Source of the DNA: an uncultured Actinomycetes bacterium
GTDB lineage: Bacteria; Actinomycetota; Thermoleophilia; Gaiellales; JAICJC01
Direction of reading: 5' to 3'
Length of the DNA: 64,000 nt
Assembly: GCA_963811675.1 (NCBI GenBank)
Contig: CAWESH010000005.1
Location: forward strand, 9,749 to 73,748
The notes under the pieces are model-generated. The model had not been told where the DNA came from and made no database searches. It saw only the letters and a program-made list of their open reading frames with translations. The first letter of the stretch is position 1; each line of letters opens with the position of its first letter. Position numbers and translations under genes: made by a program. This document shows positions 35,578-46,265 of this stretch, one piece after another.

Positions 35578-36958
35578 GTGAGCGATCTAGCCCTGGCAGC
35601 GCTGCTGACGACGGCGATTCTTTTGGCGAGCATGGTGTCGATCGAGGCCGGCCTCTCGGTCGCGCTGATCGAGCTGGCCGCCGGCGTCGCGGTGGGAAAC
35701 CTGTTCACGGTGAGCGTGCCCGACTGGCTCTCGTTCATCGGCACGTTCGCGGGTGTGCTGCTGACGTTCCTGGCCGGCGCGGAGGTCGACGTGCCCCAGT
35801 TTCGCCGCGAGTGGCGGGCCAGCGTCCTGATCGGCGCGGTCTCGTTTGCCGCGCCGTTCGTGGTCGCACTCGGAGCCTGCTACTGGCTGGCCGGGTGGAA
35901 CCGAGACCAGGCCGAGATCGGCGGGTCTGGCACTCTCCACCACCAGCCTGGCAGTCGTGTACGCGGTGCTGGTCGAGACCGGCCTCAACCGCTCGATCAT
36001 CGGCAAGCGGATCATGTCGGCGACGTTCATCACCGACATCCTCACGGTGATCGGCCTGTCGGTGCTGTTCGTCACCCCCAACCTGTGGGTGATCCCGTTC
36101 GTGGTGCTCTCGATCGCGTTCATCTGGGGCCTCCCCAAGATCGCGCCGTGGTTCTTCGGCCGCTACGGCGACCGGGTGATCGAACCCGAGATCAAGCTGG
36201 TGTTCGCCGCGCTCTTCGTCCTGATCTACTTCGGCACCAAGGCCGACAGCCAACCGGTGCTGCCGGCGTTCATCCTCGGCCTGGCGATGAGCGGCCACTA
36301 CGCCCAGCACCGCCAGGAGCAGGAGCGCCTGCGCGTGGTCGCATTCGCGTTTCTGACGCCGTTCTTCTTCATCAAGGGCGGCCTCAACGTGTCGCTCTCG
36401 GCGGTGTGGGCAAACCTGGGCGTGCTGGCCCTGCTGATCGTGGCCAAGATCGCGCCCAAGTTCGCCGGCGTCTACCCGCTGGCGCGTCGCTACACCAAAC
36501 CGCACGCGGCGTTCACGACGCTGCTGATGTCGACCGGCCTGACATTCGGCACGATCACGTCGTTGTACGGACTCCAGGCGGGGATCATCGACGAGACCCA
36601 GTTCTCGCTGCTGGTGACGGTGGTCGTGCTGTCGGCGATCGTGCCCACCGCGATCGCCCAGCACTTCTTCAGCCCCACCGCGGAGCAGGTCGCCGCTGAG
36701 GTCGACCCCAGCGAGCGAGGCGCACCCAGCCTCGCGCGAGAGAGCGCTACCGAGCCGGCAACGGCGGTGGGAGGCGCACCGTCGCGACCGTGCCACCGCC
36801 CGGCCGATCCGCGAGCGAGATCGATCCCTGCTGAACCTCGGCCAGCGCCTGGGAAATCGCGAGGCCGAGCCCGATGCCCTCGCCGTCATGGGCGAAGCGT
36901 TCAAACAGGTGGTCGCGCACCTTGGGGTCGATGCCCGTGCCACGATCGGCGACCGTGA
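35578..36958 (+). pseudogene. cation:proton antiporter (CPA family), one frame break, 3' end uncertain
   Basis: GTG at 35578 with GGAGG 7 nt upstream. TM-rich MSDLALAALLTTAILLASMVS..LTFLAGAEVD.. in ORF 35578.., then ALSTTSLAVVYAVLVETGL..FFFIKGGLNV.. in ORF 35846.., with a +1 join near 35920. The last ~70 codons overlap the convergent kinase gene and are probably not genuine. Confidence 0.75.
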
Positions 36959-38103
36959 TCTCGACATGCTCACCGCGGGTCGTCGCCGAAAACTCGATGG
37001 GCGAGCCGACAGGGCTGTGTTCCTGAGCATTTCGGGCAAGGTTGAGCACGATCTGGCGCAGCACGTCCTCGTCGGCCGATGCGGTGCTGCCGTCCCCCGC
37101 AACGACCGCCCACTCCCGGTCACCTAGCCGTGAAAGCTGGGAGGCGACCGACTGGAGCAGCGGCTCGACCGGCACGGCCACGATGTTGAGTCGCTCGACC
37201 TCACTCGCGCGGGCCAGCTGCAGCAGTCCGTCCACCAGCCGGCCCATCCGGTCGATCTCGGCGATCGCCACGTCCACCGCCTCATCGCGCTGCTCCGTGG
37301 TGGCGTCGGGATTCTCTGCCAGCAGCTCCAGGTGGCCGCGAGCGATCGTCAGCGGTGTGCGCAGTTCGTGGGACGCATCTTCGAGGAACCGCTTCTGCGA
37401 GTCGAAGGCCGTCTCCAACCGGTTGAGCATGCGGTCGATGGCAGCCGCCACTGCACCGATCTCGTCGCGGTTTTCGAGTCCTGTCCGCAGCCCCATGGCA
37501 TCTGGCGCGACTTCGTTCGCCAACGTCGTGATCGACTCCAGCGGCCGCAGGCCGCGGCGCGCCGCGAACCACGCGCCCACCGTGGTCAGGACCACGCCGA
37601 CGGCGCCGGCCAGGAGCGTGGCGTGAAGCAGGCTCTCCATCGATTCCAACACCGGCTGAAGCGGGGCCGCTGCCAACGCGTATTCACCACTGTCGATCGG
37701 CACCACGCTGACTCGGAACTTCCCCGACGGAAGCTGCAGCGTGGCCACATGTGCTCTCTGGGAGAACAGCCCCGACTCCGCGCGCCCGGGTTGCGAGCAC
37801 ACGCGCATCAGCGTTTGGGGCGATCACGCGGTGGTCGTCATACAAGGCAAGCAGGTGGCCCGAGGCGACCGCTTCGCGCGCGTTCACGAATCGCTCACTC
37901 GAGCCCGGCTCATCCCCGTGTTCGGCTCCCTCCGCACGACCGCCGAGCTTGTCGGCGTCGGCTCGGAGTGAGCTGTCGACTCGGTTGAGCGCGTTGCGGT
38001 GGGCGTACTCGTACACGGTCAGCAGGCTGATGGCGAGCACGATCATCGCCAGGCCGGCATAGAGCAGCGCCAGCCGCGTGCGCAGGGACACGTGCCTGAT
38101 CAT
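36747..38103 (-). pseudogene. sensor histidine kinase (HAMP-HisKA-HATPase), one frame break
   Basis: The N-terminal TM/sensor part is in ORF 37684..38103. The rest is in ORF 36747..37808 (FLEDASHELRTPLT, NLARNAQEH, DRGTGI, GIGLGLAI). The +1 join is near 37790. Length is 1357 nt (3n+1). Confidence 0.8.
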
Positions 38104-38759
38104 TCAGGCGAGAGGCGGTAGCCGACACCCCGGACAGTCTCGATCGTGCCCGGCGCGAGCTTCTGTCGCAGCGAGGCGATATACACATCGATCATGTTCG
38201 AACGCACGTTAGAAAGGCTGTCCCACGCGCCCTCGGCCAACTGAGACCTGGTCAGCACCTGACCGGGATTTCGCATCAGATGGGCGAGCAGCGTGAACTC
38301 CCGGTTTGAGAGCGTGAAAACTCCCAGCGGTGATTCGAGTTCGCGTTTGTACACGTCCAGACGCGTGCTTCCGGCGCTCAAAAGCTCCACCGGCGGCTCG
38401 GCGCTACGGCGGATCTGGGCGCGGATGCGGGCGGTCAGCTCCCGAAAGGAGAACGGCTTGACAACGTAGTCGACCGCCCCCAGCTCGAGGCCGTGGATCC
38501 TGTCCTCCACGCCCGACCGAGCGGTCAGCATGATCACCGGTACGCCCGGTACCACCCCCCGGAGCGCTTCCAGCAGCTCGAAGCCGTCCGCCCCCGGCAT
38601 CATCACGTCCAGCACGGCCAGCGTGGGCGGATCGGAGCGGGCGAGTGAGAGTGCCTCATCGGCGCTCGCCGCTGTCTGCACGTCGAATCCCTGTGTGCGA
38701 AGGCCGCGCTCCAGCAGGCTCAGGAGCCGCGGTTCATCGTCAACCACGAGCAGATGCAT
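38100..38759 (-). CDS. OmpR-family response regulator
   Basis: MHLLVVDDEP..LDVMMPGADG..DYVVKPF receiver, plus a winged-helix C-terminus (..IDVYIASLRQKL..VRGVGYRL). The stop overlaps the kinase start (ATGA). The long N-terminal extension of listed ORF 38100..39314 is not supported. Confidence 0.9.
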   Translation of the reverse strand: MHLLVVDDEPRLLSLLERGLRTQGFDVQTAASADEALSLARSDPPTLAVLDVMMPGADGFELLEALRGVVPGVPVIMLTARSGVEDRIHGLELGAVDYVVKPFSFRELTARIRAQIRRSAEPPVELLSAGSTRLDVYKRELESPLGVFTLSNREFTLLAHLMRNPGQVLTRSQLAEGAWDSLSNVRSNMIDVYIASLRQKLAPGTIETVRGVGYRLSPE

Positions 38760-38760
38760 G

Positions 38761-38795
38761 GTTTGACGGTATCGCGACGTCGTGTGACTCGCGAC
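38761..38795. promoter_or_regulatory. imperfect direct repeat in the divergent regulator/redox-operon intergenic region
   Basis: gtttgac-ggta-tcgcgac (38761-38778) and gtgtgac-tcgcgac (38782-38795). The GTnTGAC units are 21 nt apart and TCGCGAC occurs twice. This is a candidate response-regulator site only. Confidence 0.2.
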
Positions 38796-38838
38796 CGGGC
38801 ATGAAGAACCATTCATCTTCCGCGGCCACAGTGAAGTC

Positions 38839-39144
38839 ATGAGACACCACCGGATACGCCACCGCGACCTCGGGCGCGCTCGCATCTCCCGGCTCACCAG
38901 GGTGGCCGCCGCTGCCGCCGCGACAGGGGCGCTGGTGATATCGGTGGCGGCTGCACGCTCGAATCCCGGCCGGTTCACGTCCCCGCCGCAGCCGGCGAGT
39001 GTTGCACACCAGGTGCACAGGGCGCAGAGTACCCCCAGCAGCCCGCCGGCTTCGACCGGGAGCGCGGGAGCAGCCACACAATCGTCTCCGCCACCGGTCA
39101 CCTCGACCTCCACTCCACCGGTCATCGTCACGGGTGGATCATGA
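38839..39144 (+). CDS. small membrane-anchored Pro/Ser/Thr-rich protein (function unknown)
   Basis: 101-aa ORF with a basic N-terminus, a hydrophobic segment VAAAAAATGALVISVAAA and a P/S/T-rich tail. The stop overlaps the apbE start (ATGA). Low-complexity sequence, so coding status is uncertain. Confidence 0.35.
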   Translation: MRHHRIRHRDLGRARISRLTRVAAAAAATGALVISVAAARSNPGRFTSPPQPASVAHQVHRAQSTPSSPPASTGSAGAATQSSPPPVTSTSTPPVIVTGGS

Positions 39145-40070
39145 GCGGCGGGCCTGTCAGCACCCGATTCGCCGCACTGGGGACAACCGCGGTGGTGGCG
39201 GTCACCCGTCCCCGTCAGCTGGCTGCGGCGGTCGCCGAGGTCGAAGCTGAAATCGCCGACATCGACCGCACCTGCAGCCGGTTTCGGCCGGACTCCGAAC
39301 TCATGCAGCTGCACCGCACCCCTGGCCGCCCGGCCACGGTCAGCGCACTCCTGGCTGAGGCGCTAAGCGTGGCGTTGGACGCCGCCGCGGCAACCGACGG
39401 CCTGGTCGATCCCACGGTCGGGGCGGCTGTCTCGGCGATTGGATATGACCGCGACTACGAACAGCTGGTGCCGCTGGATCATCCGCTGCCCTGCGAGCGC
39501 CCGGTTCCCGGCACCAAAGCAATCTGGTTTGACGGAACCCGACGGGAGGTGCGTCTTCGTCCGGGCACCAGCCTCGATCTGGGCGCGACAGGCAAAGCGC
39601 TGGCGGTCGATCGGGCGGTCGTGCGAGCGGTCAAGGTCATCGGCTGCGGCGTCTTGGTGAGCATCGGCGGAGACCTCGCTACCGCAGGGCCCGCGCCGGC
39701 GGGAGGATGGTCGATCGGTATCGCCGACGACCACCGGGCGGAGCGCGAGCAGATCGAGCAGGCAGTGGCGATCACCAGAGGGGCGATCGCCACGTCCAGC
39801 ACCACGACTCGCGTTTGGGACCGAGCCGGAGAGCGATGCCACCACATCATCGACCCCCGGCGCGGCCGCTCCGCCGAGGTCGTGTGGCGAACGGTCACTG
39901 TGGCTGCCGGTACGTGTGTCGCCGCCAACGCTGCCAGCACCGCCGCCATCGTCGATGGGCGTGGCGCCTTAGCGCGTCTCACCCGGGCGGGACTCCCCTG
40001 CAGGCTGGTGACCGCCGCTGGTGACGTGACCAGCGTGGGCGGCTGGCCGAACTCCGCGGAGAGCGCGTGA
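39141..40070 (+). CDS. apbE: FAD:protein FMN transferase (ApbE family)
   Basis: RFAALGTTAVVAV, SRFRPDSEL, VDPTVG, LDLGATGKALAVDRA, AIATSS and HHIIDPRRG. Confidence 0.85.
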   Translation: MSGGPVSTRFAALGTTAVVAVTRPRQLAAAVAEVEAEIADIDRTCSRFRPDSELMQLHRTPGRPATVSALLAEALSVALDAAAATDGLVDPTVGAAVSAIGYDRDYEQLVPLDHPLPCERPVPGTKAIWFDGTRREVRLRPGTSLDLGATGKALAVDRAVVRAVKVIGCGVLVSIGGDLATAGPAPAGGWSIGIADDHRAEREQIEQAVAITRGAIATSSTTTRVWDRAGERCHHIIDPRRGRSAEVVWRTVTVAAGTCVAANAASTAAIVDGRGALARLTRAGLPCRLVTAAGDVTSVGGWPNSAESA

Positions 40071-40741
40071 GCACGATCGGGCTGGACACCCGCACGCTGT
40101 GGTACCTGACCCGCGGCACAGGGATCGTCACGCTCATGCTCCTGACCATCACGTTCCTCCTGGGACTCGTGAGTATGAGTCCGGGACCGATGCTGAGCAT
40201 GCCGCGGTTCGTAGTCGCCGGACTCCATCGCAACCTGTCGCTTCTGGTCGTGGCGTTCGTGTGCGTACACATCGCCACGGCAGTTGCAGACCCCTATGCG
40301 GGAATCCGGCTGATCGACGCAGTCGTGCCGCTCGCGTCGTCCTACCGGCCGGTGTGGATCGGCCTGGGGGCGGTGGCTGTCGATCTCCTGGCTGCCGTAA
40401 TTGTCACGAGTCTCGTGCGGGTCAGGCTGGGTCATCGAGCATGGCGGGCGGTGCACTGGGCCGTGTACGTGATCTGGCCGGTGGCTGTGATCCACGCGCT
40501 TGGCTCCGGCTCAGACGTGCGCTCGAGAATCCTGCCGGTGGTCGCCGCCGTGTGCACCGCTCTGGTGCTCGTTGCCTCCGGCTGGAGGGTGGCGACCGCC
40601 GACATTCCCGCGTGGCAGCGCGGAGCTTGGGGAACCGTCGGCGTCGGCGTGATGCTGGCCGTCACCGCCTGGACGCTCAACGGGCCGCTTCAGCCGGGAT
40701 GGGCGAAGTCTGCGTCGTTCGCGCTGGCGGGCATCCGGTGA
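40067..40741 (+). CDS. ferric-reductase-like transmembrane (MsrQ/YedZ-type, putative di-heme) protein
   Basis: LWYLTRGTGIVTLMLLTITFLLGL, LHRNLSLLVVAFVCVHI and HWAVYVIWPVAVIHAL give six hydrophobic segments with conserved His pairs. The GTG overlaps the apbE stop (GTGA). Confidence 0.8.
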   Translation: MSTIGLDTRTLWYLTRGTGIVTLMLLTITFLLGLVSMSPGPMLSMPRFVVAGLHRNLSLLVVAFVCVHIATAVADPYAGIRLIDAVVPLASSYRPVWIGLGAVAVDLLAAVIVTSLVRVRLGHRAWRAVHWAVYVIWPVAVIHALGSGSDVRSRILPVVAAVCTALVLVASGWRVATADIPAWQRGAWGTVGVGVMLAVTAWTLNGPLQPGWAKSASFALAGIR

Positions 40742-42057
40742 GCGCCGCCGCCACCGCCTACGACCGACCGCGCACGGCAGCTCCCCCCGCTGGAGTGCCG
40801 CGGTTGCTGGCCGGTCATCGGGCGCATCGAGGTCGAATGAATTTGCACGACCACCTCGACTACTACGGCGATCCGCGCACGGCGGCGTACGCGGCTCCAC
40901 TTTGGGCGACCGTCGAGCGGTCGGGACTGGTCGGCCGGGGCGGGGCCGGGTTCCCGACCGCCCGCAAGCTGGACGCCGTCAGGCGTGGCCGCGGCCGGCC
41001 GATCGTGGTGGTGAACGGGATGGAGGGTGAACCGGCCAGCGCGAAAGACCGGTACTTGCTCTCGGTCGTCCCCCACCTCGTCCTGGACGGAGCCGCTCTG
41101 GCGGCGGCCGAGGTAGGTGCCGACGTGGTCAAGGTGGCTGTCCGCCGCGACCGCGTCGATGCGGTGCACTCGCTCATCCGTGCTGTCTCCGAGCGTCACC
41201 AGGTCGGGCTCGATCAGATCGAGACGAGCATCCATCAGGGACCGCCGCGATACGTCGGCGGTGAGGAGACGGCGGTCGTCCACTGGCTCGACGGCGGCCC
41301 GATCCGGCCCCTGGCGGTTCCCCCTCGGCCCTTTGAACGGGGAGTTGGCGGGCGGCCCACGCTGGTGCTGAACGTCGAGACGCTGGCCCATATCGCTCTG
41401 ATCGCCCGCTACGGAGATGCATGGTTTCGCGCTCTCGGCCCCTCCCACGCTCCGGGAACGACGCTGATGACCGTGACCGGCGCTGTCGCAAACGGCGGGG
41501 TCGCGGAGGTCGCCATGGGTTCCTCCCTGAACGCGGTCGTGGAGGCATGTGATCCCCGCTCCAGGCCGGCGATGGTGTTGGCCGGCGGCTACTTCGGCGG
41601 GTGGATTCCCTGGGAGTCATGTGCGGGGCTTCGGGTCGATCCTCACCAGCTGAAGCAGGCGGGGGCCGGGCTCGGCGCCGGAATTCTGATCGCGGCGCCG
41701 CAAGGCACCTGCGTGATCGCGGAGACGGCCAGGATCGTTTCGTACCTCGCGGGTGAGAGCGCCGGCCAGTGTGGCCCGTGCTTCAACGGGGTGGCCGCGG
41801 TGGCCGACGATCTCGCACGGCTGTGCTCGAGGCCGACCGGAGGCATCATCACGGCGCGGCTGCGCTCGCGCATCAGCGTGATCGACGGGCGCGGTGCGTG
41901 CGCCCTGCCCGACGGCGTCCGCCGGCTGGTGGCAAGCGTGCTCGACGGCTTTCCTGAACACGTCGCCCAGCACGAGCGCCACGGTGGCTGCGTTGATGCA
42001 CAGCCGCTCGCCTTGCCACTGAGCTCACGTCCGCTGACAGAAGCCGACTGGCGATGA
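40738..42057 (+). CDS. NuoF-like NAD(H)-binding flavo-iron-sulfur protein
   Basis: GLVGRGGAGFPTARK, VVNGMEGEPASAKD, YVGGEETA and ESAGQCGPCFNG correspond to the NuoF/51-kDa nucleotide, FMN and 4Fe-4S regions. The GTG at 40738 overlaps the upstream stop. The first ~213 codons of listed ORF 40099.. are an off-frame reading of the previous gene. Confidence 0.8.
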   Translation: MSAAATAYDRPRTAAPPAGVPRLLAGHRAHRGRMNLHDHLDYYGDPRTAAYAAPLWATVERSGLVGRGGAGFPTARKLDAVRRGRGRPIVVVNGMEGEPASAKDRYLLSVVPHLVLDGAALAAAEVGADVVKVAVRRDRVDAVHSLIRAVSERHQVGLDQIETSIHQGPPRYVGGEETAVVHWLDGGPIRPLAVPPRPFERGVGGRPTLVLNVETLAHIALIARYGDAWFRALGPSHAPGTTLMTVTGAVANGGVAEVAMGSSLNAVVEACDPRSRPAMVLAGGYFGGWIPWESCAGLRVDPHQLKQAGAGLGAGILIAAPQGTCVIAETARIVSYLAGESAGQCGPCFNGVAAVADDLARLCSRPTGGIITARLRSRISVIDGRGACALPDGVRRLVASVLDGFPEHVAQHERHGGCVDAQPLALPLSSRPLTEADWR

Positions 42058-42260
42058 AGCAGCGTCAGTTGCACGTCGACCCGATTGCGTGCGACGGACA
42101 CGGACTGTGCGCCGACCTTCTACCTGAGCGAATCGAGCTGGACGAATGGGGGTACCCGGTGATCGATCGATCACCTGTGCACGGCATCACCGCGGTGCAC
42201 GCCCGGCGGGCAGTGGCCGCATGTCCCAAGCTCGCGCTCCGCCTGGTGCGCGCCCAATGA
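42054..42260 (+). CDS. small ferredoxin (single-cluster type)
   Basis: 68 aa; VDPIACDGHGLCADLLPE....AVAACPKLAL fits the CxxHxxC...CP ferredoxin pattern. ATGA overlaps on both sides. Confidence 0.75.
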   Translation: MKQRQLHVDPIACDGHGLCADLLPERIELDEWGYPVIDRSPVHGITAVHARRAVAACPKLALRLVRAQ

Positions 42261-42868
42261 TCACCTTGCAGCAGGTCGACACAGACGATCGCTCCGCTCG
42301 CAGGCAGGACACGGGCGTAGAGGGCAATCGCCGGCTTACCGCCGCGCTCGGCGCGGTGTTGTTGGTGCTGCTCGCGATCGAGGGCGGAACGATCCCGTTT
42401 CTGGGGCAGCTGGAGGTTGTGCACGTGCTTGTGGGGCTGGTGCTGATCCCCATCGTGCTGCTCAAACTCGGCACCACCTTCTACCGGTTTGTCCGGTATT
42501 ACACCGGCAACCCGGCGTATCGGCGTGCCGGAGCCCCCCATCCGGTATTGCGAGTCGCCGGGCCGTTCGTGGTACTCACCACTGTCGCGCTGTTCGCCTC
42601 GGGCGTGGCGTTGGCAATCGTCGGCCGTCACTCCCAGACCGTGTACACGATCCACAAGCTCAGCTTCATCGTGTGGTTTGGGTCGATGACGATCCATGTG
42701 CTCGGGCACGTGTGGTCGCTGCCTGCGATGGCCGGCCGCGACTGGCACGAGGCCAACCGGATCCGCGGGTCACGTGTGCGGCAACTCTCGGTGGTGGGAA
42801 TCGCCGGGCTGGGGGTGCTCATGACGGTGTTCGTATTCCCGCTGCTCCCCGCCTGGGGGCACGGTTAG
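42257..42868 (+). CDS. four-TM membrane protein with conserved histidines (cytochrome-b-like)
   Basis: MITLQQ.. start by ATGA overlap. Helices contain VVHVLVG, TIHKLSF and TIHVLGHVW. Family not firmly recognised. Confidence 0.55.
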   Translation: MITLQQVDTDDRSARRQDTGVEGNRRLTAALGAVLLVLLAIEGGTIPFLGQLEVVHVLVGLVLIPIVLLKLGTTFYRFVRYYTGNPAYRRAGAPHPVLRVAGPFVVLTTVALFASGVALAIVGRHSQTVYTIHKLSFIVWFGSMTIHVLGHVWSLPAMAGRDWHEANRIRGSRVRQLSVVGIAGLGVLMTVFVFPLLPAWGHG

Positions 42869-42898: not shown

Positions 42899-43604
42899 GT
42901 GACCGCACCGGCCCGCAATCCGGAGCGACACCTCGGCCACCGCACCGGCTGGCTACGCGCAGCCGTGCTCGGCGCCAACGACGGGATCGTTTCGGTCGCG
43001 GCCATCATCGTGGGTGTCGCAGCGGCCGATTCGAGCCGCTCCGCGATCATCACCGCGGGAGTGGCAGGCCTCGTCGCAGGCGCGGCATCGATGGCCGCCG
43101 GGGAATACGTGTCGGTCAGCTCCCAAGCAGACGCCGAGCGGGCTGACCTCGCGCTCGAGCAGCAGGAGCTGCGCAGCGACCCAATCGGCGAACGAGCCGA
43201 ACTCGCTGAGATCTACCGCGCCCGTGGCCTTTCTCCCGAGGCTCGCAGAGCAGGTTGCAGGCGAACTGAGCGCCGGTGACGACCTGCTCGGGGTGCATGC
43301 CCGGGATGAACTGGGCATGACCGAGCTCTCCCATGCCCGGCCGTTTCAGGCAGCCGGTGCGTCAGCTGCATCCTTCACCGTCGGCGCGGCCCTGCCGCTG
43401 TTGGCGGTGATTTTGGCGCCGTCCTCGTGGCGGATCGAGGCGACTGTGGCAGCGACGCTGGTAGCGCTTGCTGTGACCGGCTGGGCGGGTGCCCGCTTGG
43501 GTGGGGCGCCGGTCGTGCGCGGAACGCTGCGCGTCACCGTGTGGGGTGTCGCTGCGATGCTACTGACCATGATGGTGGGTCGCTTGGTCGGCAACACCGT
43601 GTGA
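42899..43604 (+). pseudogene. VIT1/CCC1-family iron/manganese transporter, one frame break
   Basis: LRAAVLGANDGIVSVAAIIVG..SMAAGEYVSVSSQ in ORF 42899... Then LAEQVAGEL..HARDELGMTELSHARPFQAAGASAASF.. in ORF 43014.., with a +1 join near 43240. Length is 706 nt (3n+1). Confidence 0.8.
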
Positions 43605-46265
43605 CCCAGGTGCCGATGTCTGATGCAGGTGGTGGCGGTGGGGCCATGCACTCCAGCGCGCCGCCCGGCGGATGATCCTGCGCCCCTGGACGGGCCGGCT
43701 GAGGGCACGATGCCGCCGCGGCCGGGGTTTGAAGAAGATGCTCTTGCCGAGTTCGGCGAGAGCGAGGTAGGTGATCACCATCACCCCGAGCACCAGCAGG
43801 AACGTTGGCGGGAGGCTGGTGAACCCCAGCGGCTCGGCGATCAACGGGATGTAGGGAATCGCCACGGCAACGGCCGCGCAGGCGACGGTGGTGACCAGCA
43901 GCGGGGTGCTCGGCCGGCTTCTGAAGAACGGCACTCGACGGGTGCGGATGACGAAGATGACGAGCGTCTGCGTCGCCAGCGACTCGACGAACCAGCCCGA
44001 GCGAAACAGCGTCGGGCCGGCGTCGAAGACCTTGAGCATGACCGCGAAGGTGAGGAAGTCATAGATGCTCGAGATCGGTCCGAAGAAGCCCATGAACCGG
44101 CGGATCATGCCGATGTCCCACTGTGACGGACGGGCCAGCAGCTCCTCGTCGACGTTGTCGGTGGGGATGGTCAGCTCGCTGACGTCGTAAAGCAGGTTAT
44201 TCAGCAGGATCTGTGTTGGCAGCATCGGCAGGAACGACAGAAACAGCGACGCACCTGCGGCGGAGAACATGTTGCCGAAGTTGGATGACGTCCCCATCAG
44301 CACGTACTTGATGGTGTTGGCAAACACGCGCCGCCCCTCCGCCACGCCGTCGGCGAGGATGTCGAGATCCTTGGTCATCAGCACCACGTCAGCGGCGTCC
44401 TTGGCGACCTCGACTCCGGTGTCGACGGAGATTCCAATGTCGGCCTTGTGCAGAGCGATCGCGTCGTTTACCCCGTCGCCGAGGAATCCGACGTCCGATC
44501 CAAGTGCGCGCTGGCGCACGATCACGCGTGACTTCTGGTCGGGGGTGACGCGGGCGAAGATGGTGGTCTCCGCGAGCGCCGCATCCAGCTGGGGATCGCT
44601 CATCTGATCGAGGTCGTTGCCGGTGAGAATGCCCCCGCCGCCGAGTCCGATCTGATCGCACACGTGCTGGGCGACGAGGCCGTTGTCGCCGGTGATCACC
44701 TTGACGGTGACGCCGAGCCGGTCAAGCCGCCGCAGCGACTCGGTGACACGTGGTTTCGGCGGATCGGAAAAACACAGGAAGCCGTCAAGTCGCAGATCGC
44801 GCTCGTCCTCGGCGCTGATGTGGTCGATCGACACCGCACGGCTGGCCACAGCGACCACGCGCGTGCCCGATTGAAACAGCCGGGTAAGCACCGGCGCGGC
44901 CTCGTCCGGTATGTCGTCACACCGGCTCAGCACGCGTTCTGGTGCCCCCTTGGTGATGACCCGCAACTCCTGGCCCCAACGCGCAAGCACCGACGCGATC
45001 TGGCGTTCGTGATCGAACGGCAACCGATCCAGCGCTTCCCACTCGACATGCCCGCCAGAGTCGGGCGGCGGCGCGTCCCACAGTGCCGAGTCAAGCTCGT
45101 TGCCCGCTCGATCGCTACATGCAAGCCCAAGGTCGAACACACGGCCGCATCTGCTGCCGTCGGGCCCGAGCGCAGCGGCGAAGCGGATCTGGCCGTCGGT
45201 AAGCGTGCCGGTCTTGTCGGTGAAGAGCACGCGGATGTTGCCGAGGTCCTCGATGCAGACGAGTCGCTTGACGATCACCTTCTTCTGAGCGAGCCGGCGG
45301 CTGCCGGCAGCAAGGCTCACGGTCACGATCGCCGGCAGCAGCTGCGGGGTCAGGCCAACCGCGATCGCGAGTGCGAACAGCGCAGATTGGAGCACCGATC
45401 GCCCGAGCAGGACGTTGATCACGAAGATCGATCCCGCCAGCCCCCCGGCCACGATCGCGATCATGCGTGAGAAGTCCTGCAGGCCGTGCTGGAACGCGGT
45501 TTGCTCGTGGCGTTCCCCCAGGCTGAGCGCGATGCCACCGAACGCGGTGTGCGCGCCGGTTGTGACAACCACTCCCCGCCCGGCGCCTGAGCGCACGATG
45601 GTGCCCATGAATGCACACATGGGCAGGTCGAGTGAGAACTCGCCCGACTCGGCCGCAACCGTCGTCTTGAAAGCAGCCTCGGCCTCGCCCGTCAACACCG
45701 ATTCGTCGCACTCGAGCCCGTGTACCTCGAGCAACCGGAGATCAGCGGGAACCACATCGCCGACCCGCAGATGGACGACATCGCCGGGCACCAGACTCGA
45801 AACGTCGCGACGAACGGAGGCGCCGTCACGATCTACGGCCGTTTGATGGCGGATCTGGGAATGAAGCGCCTCGACCGCCTTCTCGGAGCGATACTCGTTG
45901 ACAAAGCTGAGGCCGATGCTCATCGTCATGATCGCGCCGATGATCAACGCCTCGTTGCCGTCACCGACCACCGCCGACACCACCGCAGCGGCGAGCAAGA
46001 GCAGTAAGAGGTAGCTTCGAAGCTGGCGAACCAGCACGTCGAGGACGTGAACTCCGTGGGTGCGAAGCACGTTCGGCCCGTACTCCACCAGCCGCGCAGA
46101 CGCCTCGGCGCCGGTGAGCCCCGCGTCTCGTGTGTCGAGTCTGGTCAGGGTCTCGGCCGGGGAGAGCGTTGCCGACTGGGCGAGATCGAGCCGAGCAGCG
46201 AGCAGCGTCGCCGTTTCCCTCATGCCGTCACGGTCACAACGATTTCCGAGCCCTGCCTTGGACAT
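43560..46265 (-). CDS. mgtA: magnesium-translocating P-type ATPase
   Basis: DKTGTLT, GDGVNDA and NLLYDVSELTIPTDNVDEE..GPISSIYDFLTF are typical of MgtA. Uninterrupted over 2.7 kb. The ~55-aa Arg/His-rich C-terminal tail overlaps the convergent VIT1 3' end. A second ATG at 46223 is an alternative start, because the ATG at 46265 is embedded in the palindrome. Confidence 0.9.
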   Translation of the reverse strand: MSKAGLGNRCDRDGMRETATLLAARLDLAQSATLSPAETLTRLDTRDAGLTGAEASARLVEYGPNVLRTHGVHVLDVLVRQLRSYLLLLLLAAAVVSAVVGDGNEALIIGAIMTMSIGLSFVNEYRSEKAVEALHSQIRHQTAVDRDGASVRRDVSSLVPGDVVHLRVGDVVPADLRLLEVHGLECDESVLTGEAEAAFKTTVAAESGEFSLDLPMCAFMGTIVRSGAGRGVVVTTGAHTAFGGIALSLGERHEQTAFQHGLQDFSRMIAIVAGGLAGSIFVINVLLGRSVLQSALFALAIAVGLTPQLLPAIVTVSLAAGSRRLAQKKVIVKRLVCIEDLGNIRVLFTDKTGTLTDGQIRFAAALGPDGSRCGRVFDLGLACSDRAGNELDSALWDAPPPDSGGHVEWEALDRLPFDHERQIASVLARWGQELRVITKGAPERVLSRCDDIPDEAAPVLTRLFQSGTRVVAVASRAVSIDHISAEDERDLRLDGFLCFSDPPKPRVTESLRRLDRLGVTVKVITGDNGLVAQHVCDQIGLGGGGILTGNDLDQMSDPQLDAALAETTIFARVTPDQKSRVIVRQRALGSDVGFLGDGVNDAIALHKADIGISVDTGVEVAKDAADVVLMTKDLDILADGVAEGRRVFANTIKYVLMGTSSNFGNMFSAAGASLFLSFLPMLPTQILLNNLLYDVSELTIPTDNVDEELLARPSQWDIGMIRRFMGFFGPISSIYDFLTFAVMLKVFDAGPTLFRSGWFVESLATQTLVIFVIRTRRVPFFRSRPSTPLLVTTVACAAVAVAIPYIPLIAEPLGFTSLPPTFLLVLGVMVITYLALAELGKSIFFKPRPRRHRALSRPVQGRRIIRRAARWSAWPHRHHLHQTSAPGSHGVADQATHHHGQ

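Follow-up and report, generated by a model that had tools for sequence, protein, structure and literature searches.

A conserved, unannotated single-helix protein as candidate flavin carrier of a putative ApbE-linked electron-export operon in soil Actinomycetota

Many bacteria use flavinylated extracytoplasmic electron carriers to respire, take up iron and repair their envelope. A 64,000-nucleotide stretch of DNA from an uncultured Actinomycetes bacterium (contig CAWESH010000005.1; the whole stretch is called the window here) contains an operon of six genes, g1 to g6, which encodes among other products an ApbE-family flavin transferase, a ferric-reductase-like membrane protein, a NuoF-like flavoprotein and a ferredoxin, and which raises the question of what protein this ApbE would flavinylate. 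The original prediction, made from the letters of the sequence alone, had found no clear flavinylation acceptor in the operon. The first gene, g1 (38839–39144, plus strand), encodes a 101-residue single-helix protein that ends in ...PPVIVTGGS, an instance of a C-terminal [ST]G[GA]S motif conserved in its family, and we propose that this short end may be the acceptor that was missed. As far as its sequence allows a judgement, g1 is a conserved and unannotated core subunit of what would be an uncharacterised electron-export system.

No Pfam or NCBIfam profile matched g1, no match was found in a database of 5.8 billion proteins, and gene finders mostly leave the gene uncalled. The statistics of the family were therefore derived from a six-frame analysis of the loci, in which a homologous open reading frame (ORF) was found directly upstream of apbE, or of the ferric-reductase-like gene where apbE lies elsewhere, in about 40 loci. 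Across some 90 loci from Actinomycetota and Chloroflexota, the conservation of g1 is comparable to that of the core genes. The proteins share an Arg-rich N-terminus with a G-L-R-R-V-x-R-L-T-like motif, a single hydrophobic helix rich in Ala and Gly (Kyte-Doolittle mean of 1.76), a linker of low complexity made of Pro, Thr, Ser and Ala, approximately 40–130 residues long and variable in both length and sequence, and the C-terminal consensus P-P-[VQH]-[VAT]-[VTS]-S-G-G-S-COOH. Among close relatives both termini are conserved and the linker diverges with indels; the degenerate ..STGSAGAAT.. that had earlier been singled out in g1 as a possible flavinylation motif lies in this unconserved linker and loses its appeal. 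By eye, two arginines precede the Ala/Gly-rich helix in about two thirds of the homologues, which might point to a twin-arginine translocation (Tat) signal, although the residues that follow the pair are off the usual Tat consensus and the window protein has RAR.

The conserved end of g1 is well defined. [ST]G[GA]S closes 29 of 39 homologues, in five loci as SGAS, and the looser pattern [ST][GAR][GAS]S closes 33, so that a Ser, with its hydroxyl group, is the terminal residue in 33/39 loci. By comparison, these loci hold 4796 ORFs of at least 60 residues altogether, of which only 39 close with strict [ST]G[GA]S, and these are mostly the g1 homologues themselves. The Ser codons of the motif are TCG, TCC, TCA, TCT or AGC, its Gly codons include all four GGN, and all three stop codons are used after it; moreover, the motif is kept whether apbE or the ferric-reductase-like gene follows, with an overlap or with gaps of up to 137 nt. 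Because synonymous codons vary and the motif is independent of the next gene and its spacing, the constraint acts on the protein and not on the DNA. We had considered that GGS might be a by-product of the ribosome-binding site or start overlap of the next gene, and the same three features (codon variation, either gene following, gaps) rule this out. The T-G-G-S codons of the window gene, with the terminal Ser as the candidate site of ApbE flavinylation, lie at 39130–39141.

The partner enzyme is encoded by g2 (39141–40070), an FAD:protein FMN transferase of the ApbE family (FAD and FMN, flavin adenine dinucleotide and flavin mononucleotide) without a signal peptide. It matches PF02424 at 6.8e-51 and aligns with the ApbEs of known structure 1vrm, 4xgw and 3pnd, keeping the DPTVG, GGD and HHIIDP motifs. 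There is no in-frame start codon further upstream, and four loci have in-frame stops 2–16 codons before the ApbE start. A search for other acceptors gave nothing: no FMN_bind match was obtained in the operon or among recurrent neighbours, the 'SGAV' of the NuoF-like protein never ends in Ser or Thr, and no other product of the operon has a conserved [ST]G[AG][ST] site. ApbE enzymes recognise D-x-x-[ST]-G-A-[ST] and place FMN on the last residue, seven residues being enough; flavin tags perform best at a protein terminus, and replacing the Asp by Ala has a minor effect (PMC12052999). In FMN_red proteins, flavinylation motifs are found on an unstructured C-terminal extension (PMC11334425). Since the g1 tail resembles [ST]GA[ST], short terminal tags suffice and an unstructured tail has a precedent, we propose that g1 could be the missing acceptor, a carrier without a domain that would take the place of an FMN_bind protein, and we consider its C-terminal [ST]G[GA]S a strong candidate for the site of flavin attachment.

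The setting of g1 is that of a tightly packed and widely conserved operon. ORF listing and inspection of the junctions placed the six plus-strand genes at 38839–42868, each joined to the next by a 4-nt overlap of start and stop codons: ATGA at 39141 (g1/g2, TCATGAG), GTGA at 40067 (g2/g3, GCGTGAG) and 40738 (g3/g4, CGGTGAG), and ATGA again at 42054 (g4/g5, CGATGAA) and 42257 (g5/g6, CAATGAT). The coupling of six genes at these five positions had been predicted, and all the junction sequences agree with it; the operon itself had been made to start at 38761, which is the first base of an intergenic region, the ATG of g1 being at 38839. Identical overlaps were called in two close relatives (L165 and L166). 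In L126, L143 and L152, the end codons of g1 overlap the GGAGG-like ribosome-binding site of apbE. The window has a GC content of about 68%, and its nearest relatives are uncultured soil Actinomycetota.

A first scan of a genome collection with the full NuoF-like alignment was dominated by true NuoF genes and left about six useful loci, and a sub-alignment without the generic FMN loop then yielded 80 specific loci from soil metagenomes. Such a survey of gene neighbourhoods had been suggested together with the prediction, and it bore the gene order out: the ferric-reductase-like, NuoF-like and ferredoxin genes are colinear in 55 of the 56 loci that hold all three, and the order is conserved far beyond chance. 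Each component was counted in the 14 loci whose flanks are long enough. The ferric-reductase-like protein and the ferredoxin are present in all 14, g1 in 13, the response regulator in 12 and ApbE in 11; in L083, L086 and L090 apbE is positioned after the ferredoxin gene. An uncultured relative (L001), Kitasatospora (L002) and Streptomyces share the arrangement, as do metagenome-assembled genomes of Gaiellaceae, Solirubrobacteraceae, Acidimicrobiaceae, another lineage of Actinomycetota and Chloroflexi.

Pfam and NCBIfam profile searches, also suggested beforehand as a check, matched the four central products to the ApbE, Ferric_reduct, NuoF-like and ferredoxin families. The product of g3 (40067–40741), a ferric-reductase/MsrQ-like membrane protein of six helices, matches PF01794 (Ferric_reduct) at 8.4e-10 with 39.2 bits, the cut-off being 28 bits. 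Its histidines H54, H68, H130 and H143 are invariant in 54/54 orthologues and form two pairs in two helices, with spacings of 13 and 12 residues; this four-His pattern suggests the two-haem signature of the NOX/FRE/MsrQ family and hence a probable pair of stacked haems b. At 224 residues the protein is the membrane domain alone, with no fused FAD- and NAD(P)H-binding dehydrogenase domain, and its predicted outer loops hold the conserved residues D75, P88, Y93, W97 and D150.

The NuoF-like protein g4 (40738–42057) is a stand-alone NAD(P)H/FMN/[4Fe-4S] protein by its profile matches, Complex1_51K (PF01512) at 6e-34 and NADH_4Fe-4S (PF10589) at 3.4e-12. It could be aligned with Thermus Nqo1 (2fug_1; E = 6.7e-47), and the FMN and NADH motifs GRGGAGFPT, EGEP..KDR, GEETA and NVET are kept. 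Against the NuoF equivalog TIGR01959 it scored 202 bits, far below the cut-off of 558.65 bits, and neither a NuoE partner nor other nuo genes were found near it. In the cluster-binding motif ESAGQCGPC, the first Cys of the N3-type CxxCxxC is Ala in all 25 homologues, in which C325, C345, C348, C388 and C418 are invariant; a fourth ligand of the Fe-S cluster is not evident. Nearly all of these 25 share a ...W-R C-terminus, and all have R22, L23 and L24; because these three precede the alternative Met34, they support the GTG start at 40738. The gene is always directly followed by g5 (42054–42260), which encodes a 68-residue ferredoxin (Fer4_15, 2.9e-11) with a single cluster and a CxxHxxC...CP motif, a pattern typical of [3Fe-4S] actinobacterial ferredoxins. 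Fusions of the NuoF-like protein with the ferredoxin (P0022) and of the ferredoxin with g6 (L164, 1851–2666) were tried as Rosetta-stone evidence and rejected as frameshift scars. Apparent fusions of this sort in public assemblies (P0022, P0038, L164) are frameshift artefacts.

The last gene, g6 (42257–42868), encodes a 203-residue membrane protein that may be a cytochrome b. The window protein matched no Pfam or NCBIfam profile, and a Foldseek search of its model against the PDB found nothing. Its confident AlphaFold2 model (predicted local distance difference test score 85) has five long helices; the gene had been described as coding for a His-rich protein with four transmembrane segments, of which the membrane location and the conserved histidines stand and the number of helices does not. 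H56, H133, H147 and H151 are conserved among the homologues, 17 of 38 of which weakly match PF01292 (cytochrome b561; best 7.4e-6), a match that the window protein itself does not give. Thus, where one or two haem-b-type membrane proteins had been expected, g3 qualifies by its invariant His pairs and g6 is weakly linked to cytochrome b561. The gene occurs in 6 of the 14 well-flanked loci, in variable positions, and its product is probably an accessory, haem-binding membrane partner, to judge from these residues and similarities. Two further invariant features of the homologues are G-V-E-G-N-x-R-L-T at the cytoplasmic N-terminus and E42 in helix 1, possibly residues for docking or ligand binding.

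Taken together, the operon could encode a module, controlled by the two-component pair, that exports electrons across the membrane in the manner of NOX or MsrQ and has g1 as its flavin carrier, a reading to which we give a probability of about one half. We infer the direction and order of electron flow as follows. Cytoplasmic NAD(P)H would be oxidised by g4, through FMN and then the [4Fe-4S] cluster; electrons would pass from g4 to the small ferredoxin g5 and on to the two stacked haems b of g3, and, at the outer face, from these haems to an FMN that ApbE would have bound covalently to the C-terminal Ser of g1. In this arrangement g1 would consist of a membrane anchor, a disordered tether of 40–130 residues and the terminal [ST]G[GA]S tag, and either the reduced flavin or the outer haem would deliver electrons to a small extracytoplasmic acceptor, with g6 as an accessory and probably haem-binding partner in the membrane. 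Fe(III) is the best-hinted acceptor, because VIT1 and metal-transporter genes are among the neighbours and an association of MsrQ-like clusters with VIT1 has been published (PMC8238504); O2 would be the alternative, as in NOX enzymes. The general idea of the original prediction, an ApbE-linked path from NAD(P)H to haem-b membrane proteins, is thus upheld by the families, the FMN and NADH motifs and the histidines of g3, with a weak haem link for g6. A more specific and more tentative form of our proposal is that g1 acts as a natural 'flavin tag', in which FMN would sit on the last residue of an anchored, disordered peptide without a flavin fold. The flavin would be attached before export, given that the cognate ApbE is cytoplasmic, and FAD would then not have to be exported; the tail could behave as a swinging arm, docking at the outer haem site in g3 and handing electrons on to acceptors outside the cell.

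Several observations weigh against the proposed module with g1 as flavin carrier. The tail of the window protein, V-I-V-T-G-G-S, differs from the ApbE motif in that the Asp is absent and Gly, as mostly in the family, takes the place of Ala, a change that is not reported in the literature on motif variants (PMC12052999). In L126, L143 and L152, where apbE is adjacent, g1 ends in SHGGG or GGGGG without a terminal Ser, and two further homologues end differently again. Three of the 14 well-flanked loci have no ApbE nearby, and g2 has Asn (AANAASTA) where the metal-binding Asp of 'ADA-x-STA' aligns, its relatives having (D/A)AN-x-AST. The charge bias of g1 (N-flank +3.6 vs C-flank +1.1, N exceeding C in 31 of 35 homologues) predicts an extracytoplasmic tail, and no ApbE of the cluster type has a signal peptide in any locus. 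A tail outside and an enzyme without a signal imply either that modification precedes export or that the predicted topology is wrong; this conflict of compartments may thus reflect pre-export modification, a tail on the cytoplasmic side or another target of ApbE. The kinase gene of the window is frame-broken, the haem role of g6 leans on a weak similarity to cytochrome b561, and a census of 90 flanking genes gave neither a dedicated terminal reductase nor a consistent neighbour that would indicate the acceptor.

In a doubtful but serious alternative, electrons are exported as proposed and g1 is not flavinylated: its tail would have a structural or regulatory role, such as that of a plug or docking peptide for the outer face of g3 or g6 or of an assembly factor, and ApbE would act on a cytoplasmic or distantly encoded target, or supply FMN. 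An ApbE without an export signal has a counterpart in Klebsiella pneumoniae, where a cytoplasmic ApbE serves a soluble fumarate reductase (PMC12052999), and this alternative would also accommodate the GGG endings without Ser, the departure of the tail from D-x-x-[ST]-G-A-[ST] and the conserved outer-loop residues of g3, which could bind a peptide. It leaves ApbE without a conserved site in any other operon product, however, and does not account for the hydroxyl-bearing end of most g1 homologues, nor for the fact that g1 directly precedes apbE in most loci, with overlapping or nearly adjacent stop and start codons. The conflict of compartments would disappear altogether if the C-terminus of g1 were inside, where the cytoplasmic ApbE could flavinylate it and where it could take electrons from the ferredoxin and hand them to the inner haem of g3, mimicking the dehydrogenase flavin of NOX enzymes or the Fre/flavin partner of Escherichia coli MsrQ, which RefSeq labels a membrane-bound flavocytochrome. 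Basic segments just after the helix in several homologues, as in the strongly basic C-flanks of L007 (+13 over 25 residues) and L003 (+6), are in keeping with this, but the charge bias of the family favours an N-in/C-out orientation, and a ferredoxin might bind the membrane protein without an intermediary. In addition, linkers rich in Pro, Thr and Ser are a typical feature of actinobacterial proteins outside the cytoplasm, and the one in g1 argues for the outer side; we regard a cytoplasmic flavin tail as improbable.

An extracytoplasmic ApbE would need just what g1 looks like, a signal anchor with a linker, and apbE lies in the same relative frame in several loci, so that g1 and ApbE might be a single anchored and exported ApbE produced by programmed frameshifting at the ATGA overlap. 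Very little speaks for this once the loci are compared: the g1 motif is kept where the ferric-reductase-like gene follows g1 and apbE is missing or placed behind the ferredoxin gene (L083, L086, L096, L106, L118, L127 and others), several loci have gaps of 8–92 nt between g1 and apbE, and the codons vary with no conserved slippery sequence. Least credible of all is that the genes came together by chance, or that g1 is an ORF arising spuriously from high GC content. The GC content at third codon positions is weak in g1 (0.75 vs 0.79–0.84 in the neighbouring genes), and the gene is skipped by gene callers and lacks database matches, yet both of its termini are conserved as amino acids at phylum-level distances with synonymous variation of the codons, and the gene order is conserved; these comparisons effectively refute both ideas.

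The operon is divergent from an OmpR-type two-component pair, as had been described. An intact response regulator gene (38100–38759, minus strand; Response_reg 4.8e-29, Trans_reg_C 6.8e-22) is followed by a sensor histidine kinase gene (36747–38103, minus strand; HAMP, HisKA, HATPase_c), and by Pfam the domain set of the OmpR/PhoB type is complete, with a receiver and winged-helix regulator and a HAMP-HisKA-HATPase kinase. The top NCBIfam matches of the pair include the heavy-metal CopRS/CusRS and HprR groups. Between the starts of the regulator (38759) and g1 (38839) lies a divergent intergenic region of 79 bp, which contains an inverted repeat, ATGAAGAACCATTCAT, at 38801–38816. When this region of the window is aligned with L165, L167 and L001, the arms of the repeat prove partly conserved, and the repeat is a possible binding site of the response regulator, that is, a candidate operator. 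The kinase gene is split over two frames: the tblastn alignment with intact orthologues, taken from L001 and L165, jumps from frame -2 to frame -3 at 37771/37772, next to a CCCGGG stretch, with 67–80% identity to the orthologues on either side. The gene is either a very recent pseudogene or the product of an assembly indel.

Directly downstream of the operon lies a gene of the VIT1/CCC1 family of iron/manganese transporters (42899–43604, plus strand), which may be functionally linked to it. It is also frame-broken, the tblastn alignment with VIT1 of L167 switching frames at 43236/43237. This break and that of the kinase gene each consist of one clean frameshift close to short homopolymers, with 67–80% identity to intact orthologues on both sides, and related assemblies, several of them in long-read style, are visibly rich in indels and frameshift scars. 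That the operon stands intact among broken neighbours is therefore probably an assembly artefact, and because nearby breaks come at about one per 2–3 kb, an unbroken stretch of 4.8 kb is unremarkable; the weight that had been placed on this contrast is not warranted. Further out, a Na+/H+-exchanger-like membrane protein (35578–36958, plus strand) is encoded in two overlapping frames (35578–36699 and 35846–36958) and likely contains a frame break. A 901-residue P-type cation ATPase (43560–46265, minus strand) converges on the operon, and L001 and L113 have similar ATPases close to their clusters.

VIT1 adjoins the operon in the window, L097 and L167, and metal transporter genes (VIT1, Nramp, P-type ATPase) are occasional neighbours. 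No partner proved recurrent in the Pfam census of 90 flanking genes, with 3/90 at most. The flanks in Kitasatospora (L002) and L167 contain Usp, DUF1918, Pyridox_ox_2 and nitroreductase-like genes, which are reminiscent of actinobacterial stress or dormancy islands, in a pattern that is inconsistent across loci.

To our knowledge, the ApbE substrates known so far are folded domains. If the g1 tail does carry a flavin, the substrate rules of ApbE would widen to a new class, the biotechnological Flavin-tag would have a natural precedent, and the question would arise of how a tail bearing a cofactor is moved across the membrane. Extracytoplasmic electron transfer would then also have a new design, one that soil Actinomycetota and Chloroflexota widely share and that missing annotation has concealed. 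Even without flavinylation, a conserved, unannotated core subunit of an as yet uncharacterised, putative electron-export system would have been identified. Soil Actinomycetota, Streptomyces and Kitasatospora among them, commonly carry operons of this type, and culturable hosts exist for genetics.

How does this operon compare with systems already described? The engineered Flavin-tag and the tails of FMN_red proteins likewise show that a short unstructured terminal peptide ending in a modified Ser or Thr suffices for ApbE. They carry D-x-x-[ST]-G-A-[ST], whereas the g1 family ends in [VTS]-S-G-G-S and lacks the Asp. The tails of FMN_red proteins fold back onto a flavin-binding domain in the same protein, which g1 does not have in cis. 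With NuoF/Nqo1 and the diaphorases of the HoxF/HydB type, g4 shares the FMN and NADH motifs and a fold-level alignment to 2fug_1; it differs from NuoF/Nqo1 in the absence of NuoE, the Ala at the first cluster Cys, the additional invariant C325 and C418 and the ...WR end. The NOX/FRE family has in common with g3 the four His in two helices and, with the module as proposed, NAD(P)H as the ultimate donor. Here, separate Fe-S proteins take the place of the fused FAD/NADPH domain, and ApbE and a candidate flavin carrier are added.

The E. coli hprRS and hiuH-msrP-msrQ genes offer a similar layout, an OmpR-type pair divergent from an operon that holds a haem membrane protein of the MsrQ family, with the cytochrome b561 gene yodB nearby. 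A separate cytoplasmic NAD(P)H-dependent flavoprotein is reported, by Juillan-Binard in 2017, to feed the membrane haem protein MsrQ, making MsrQ-Fre a two-component NOX-like system. In contrast, no MsrP-type molybdoenzyme is encoded here, and the donor would be the NuoF-like protein with the ferredoxin rather than Fre. At the level of single proteins, the response regulator is 37% identical to E. coli HprR, g3 shows a weak similarity to MsrQ (E = 0.007 over 56 residues), and g6 has no detectable relation to YodB (hhalign probability 0.2).

The closest match is found among the MsrQ-like flavinylation clusters surveyed by Méheust et al. in 2021, which are broadly actinobacterial and of which 1437 have a fused NAD-binding domain, 153 have VIT1 and 31 have a NuoF-like gene (PMC8238504). 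As in the NuoF-like sub-group, a PF01794 protein is encoded beside apbE (g3 directly after g2), a PF10589 protein, g4, is the presumed entry point for NAD(P)H, and VIT1 is occasionally present. The survey kept ApbE and FMN-binding genes only if they had a predicted signal peptide, and its typical acceptor is an FMN_bind protein (PMC8238504). In our loci ApbE is signal-less and, in the window, not extendable upstream, no FMN_bind gene is present and the partner is the domain-less g1; furthermore, the ferredoxin is constant and the two-component system nearly so, as the counts for the response regulator show. The signal-peptide filter, together with reliance on called genes, plausibly explains both the low number of NuoF-like clusters and why g1 went unseen. 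The original prediction that a dedicated NuoF-like and ferredoxin donor lacked a characterised example is accurate for experiments, but not for the catalogue, which holds those 31 NuoF-like clusters (PMC8238504). The operon is therefore of a catalogued but uncharacterised kind, and what is new in it is the signal-less ApbE, the donor pair of NuoF-like protein and ferredoxin, the two-component partner and, above all, the conserved, unannotated g1 with its candidate tail.

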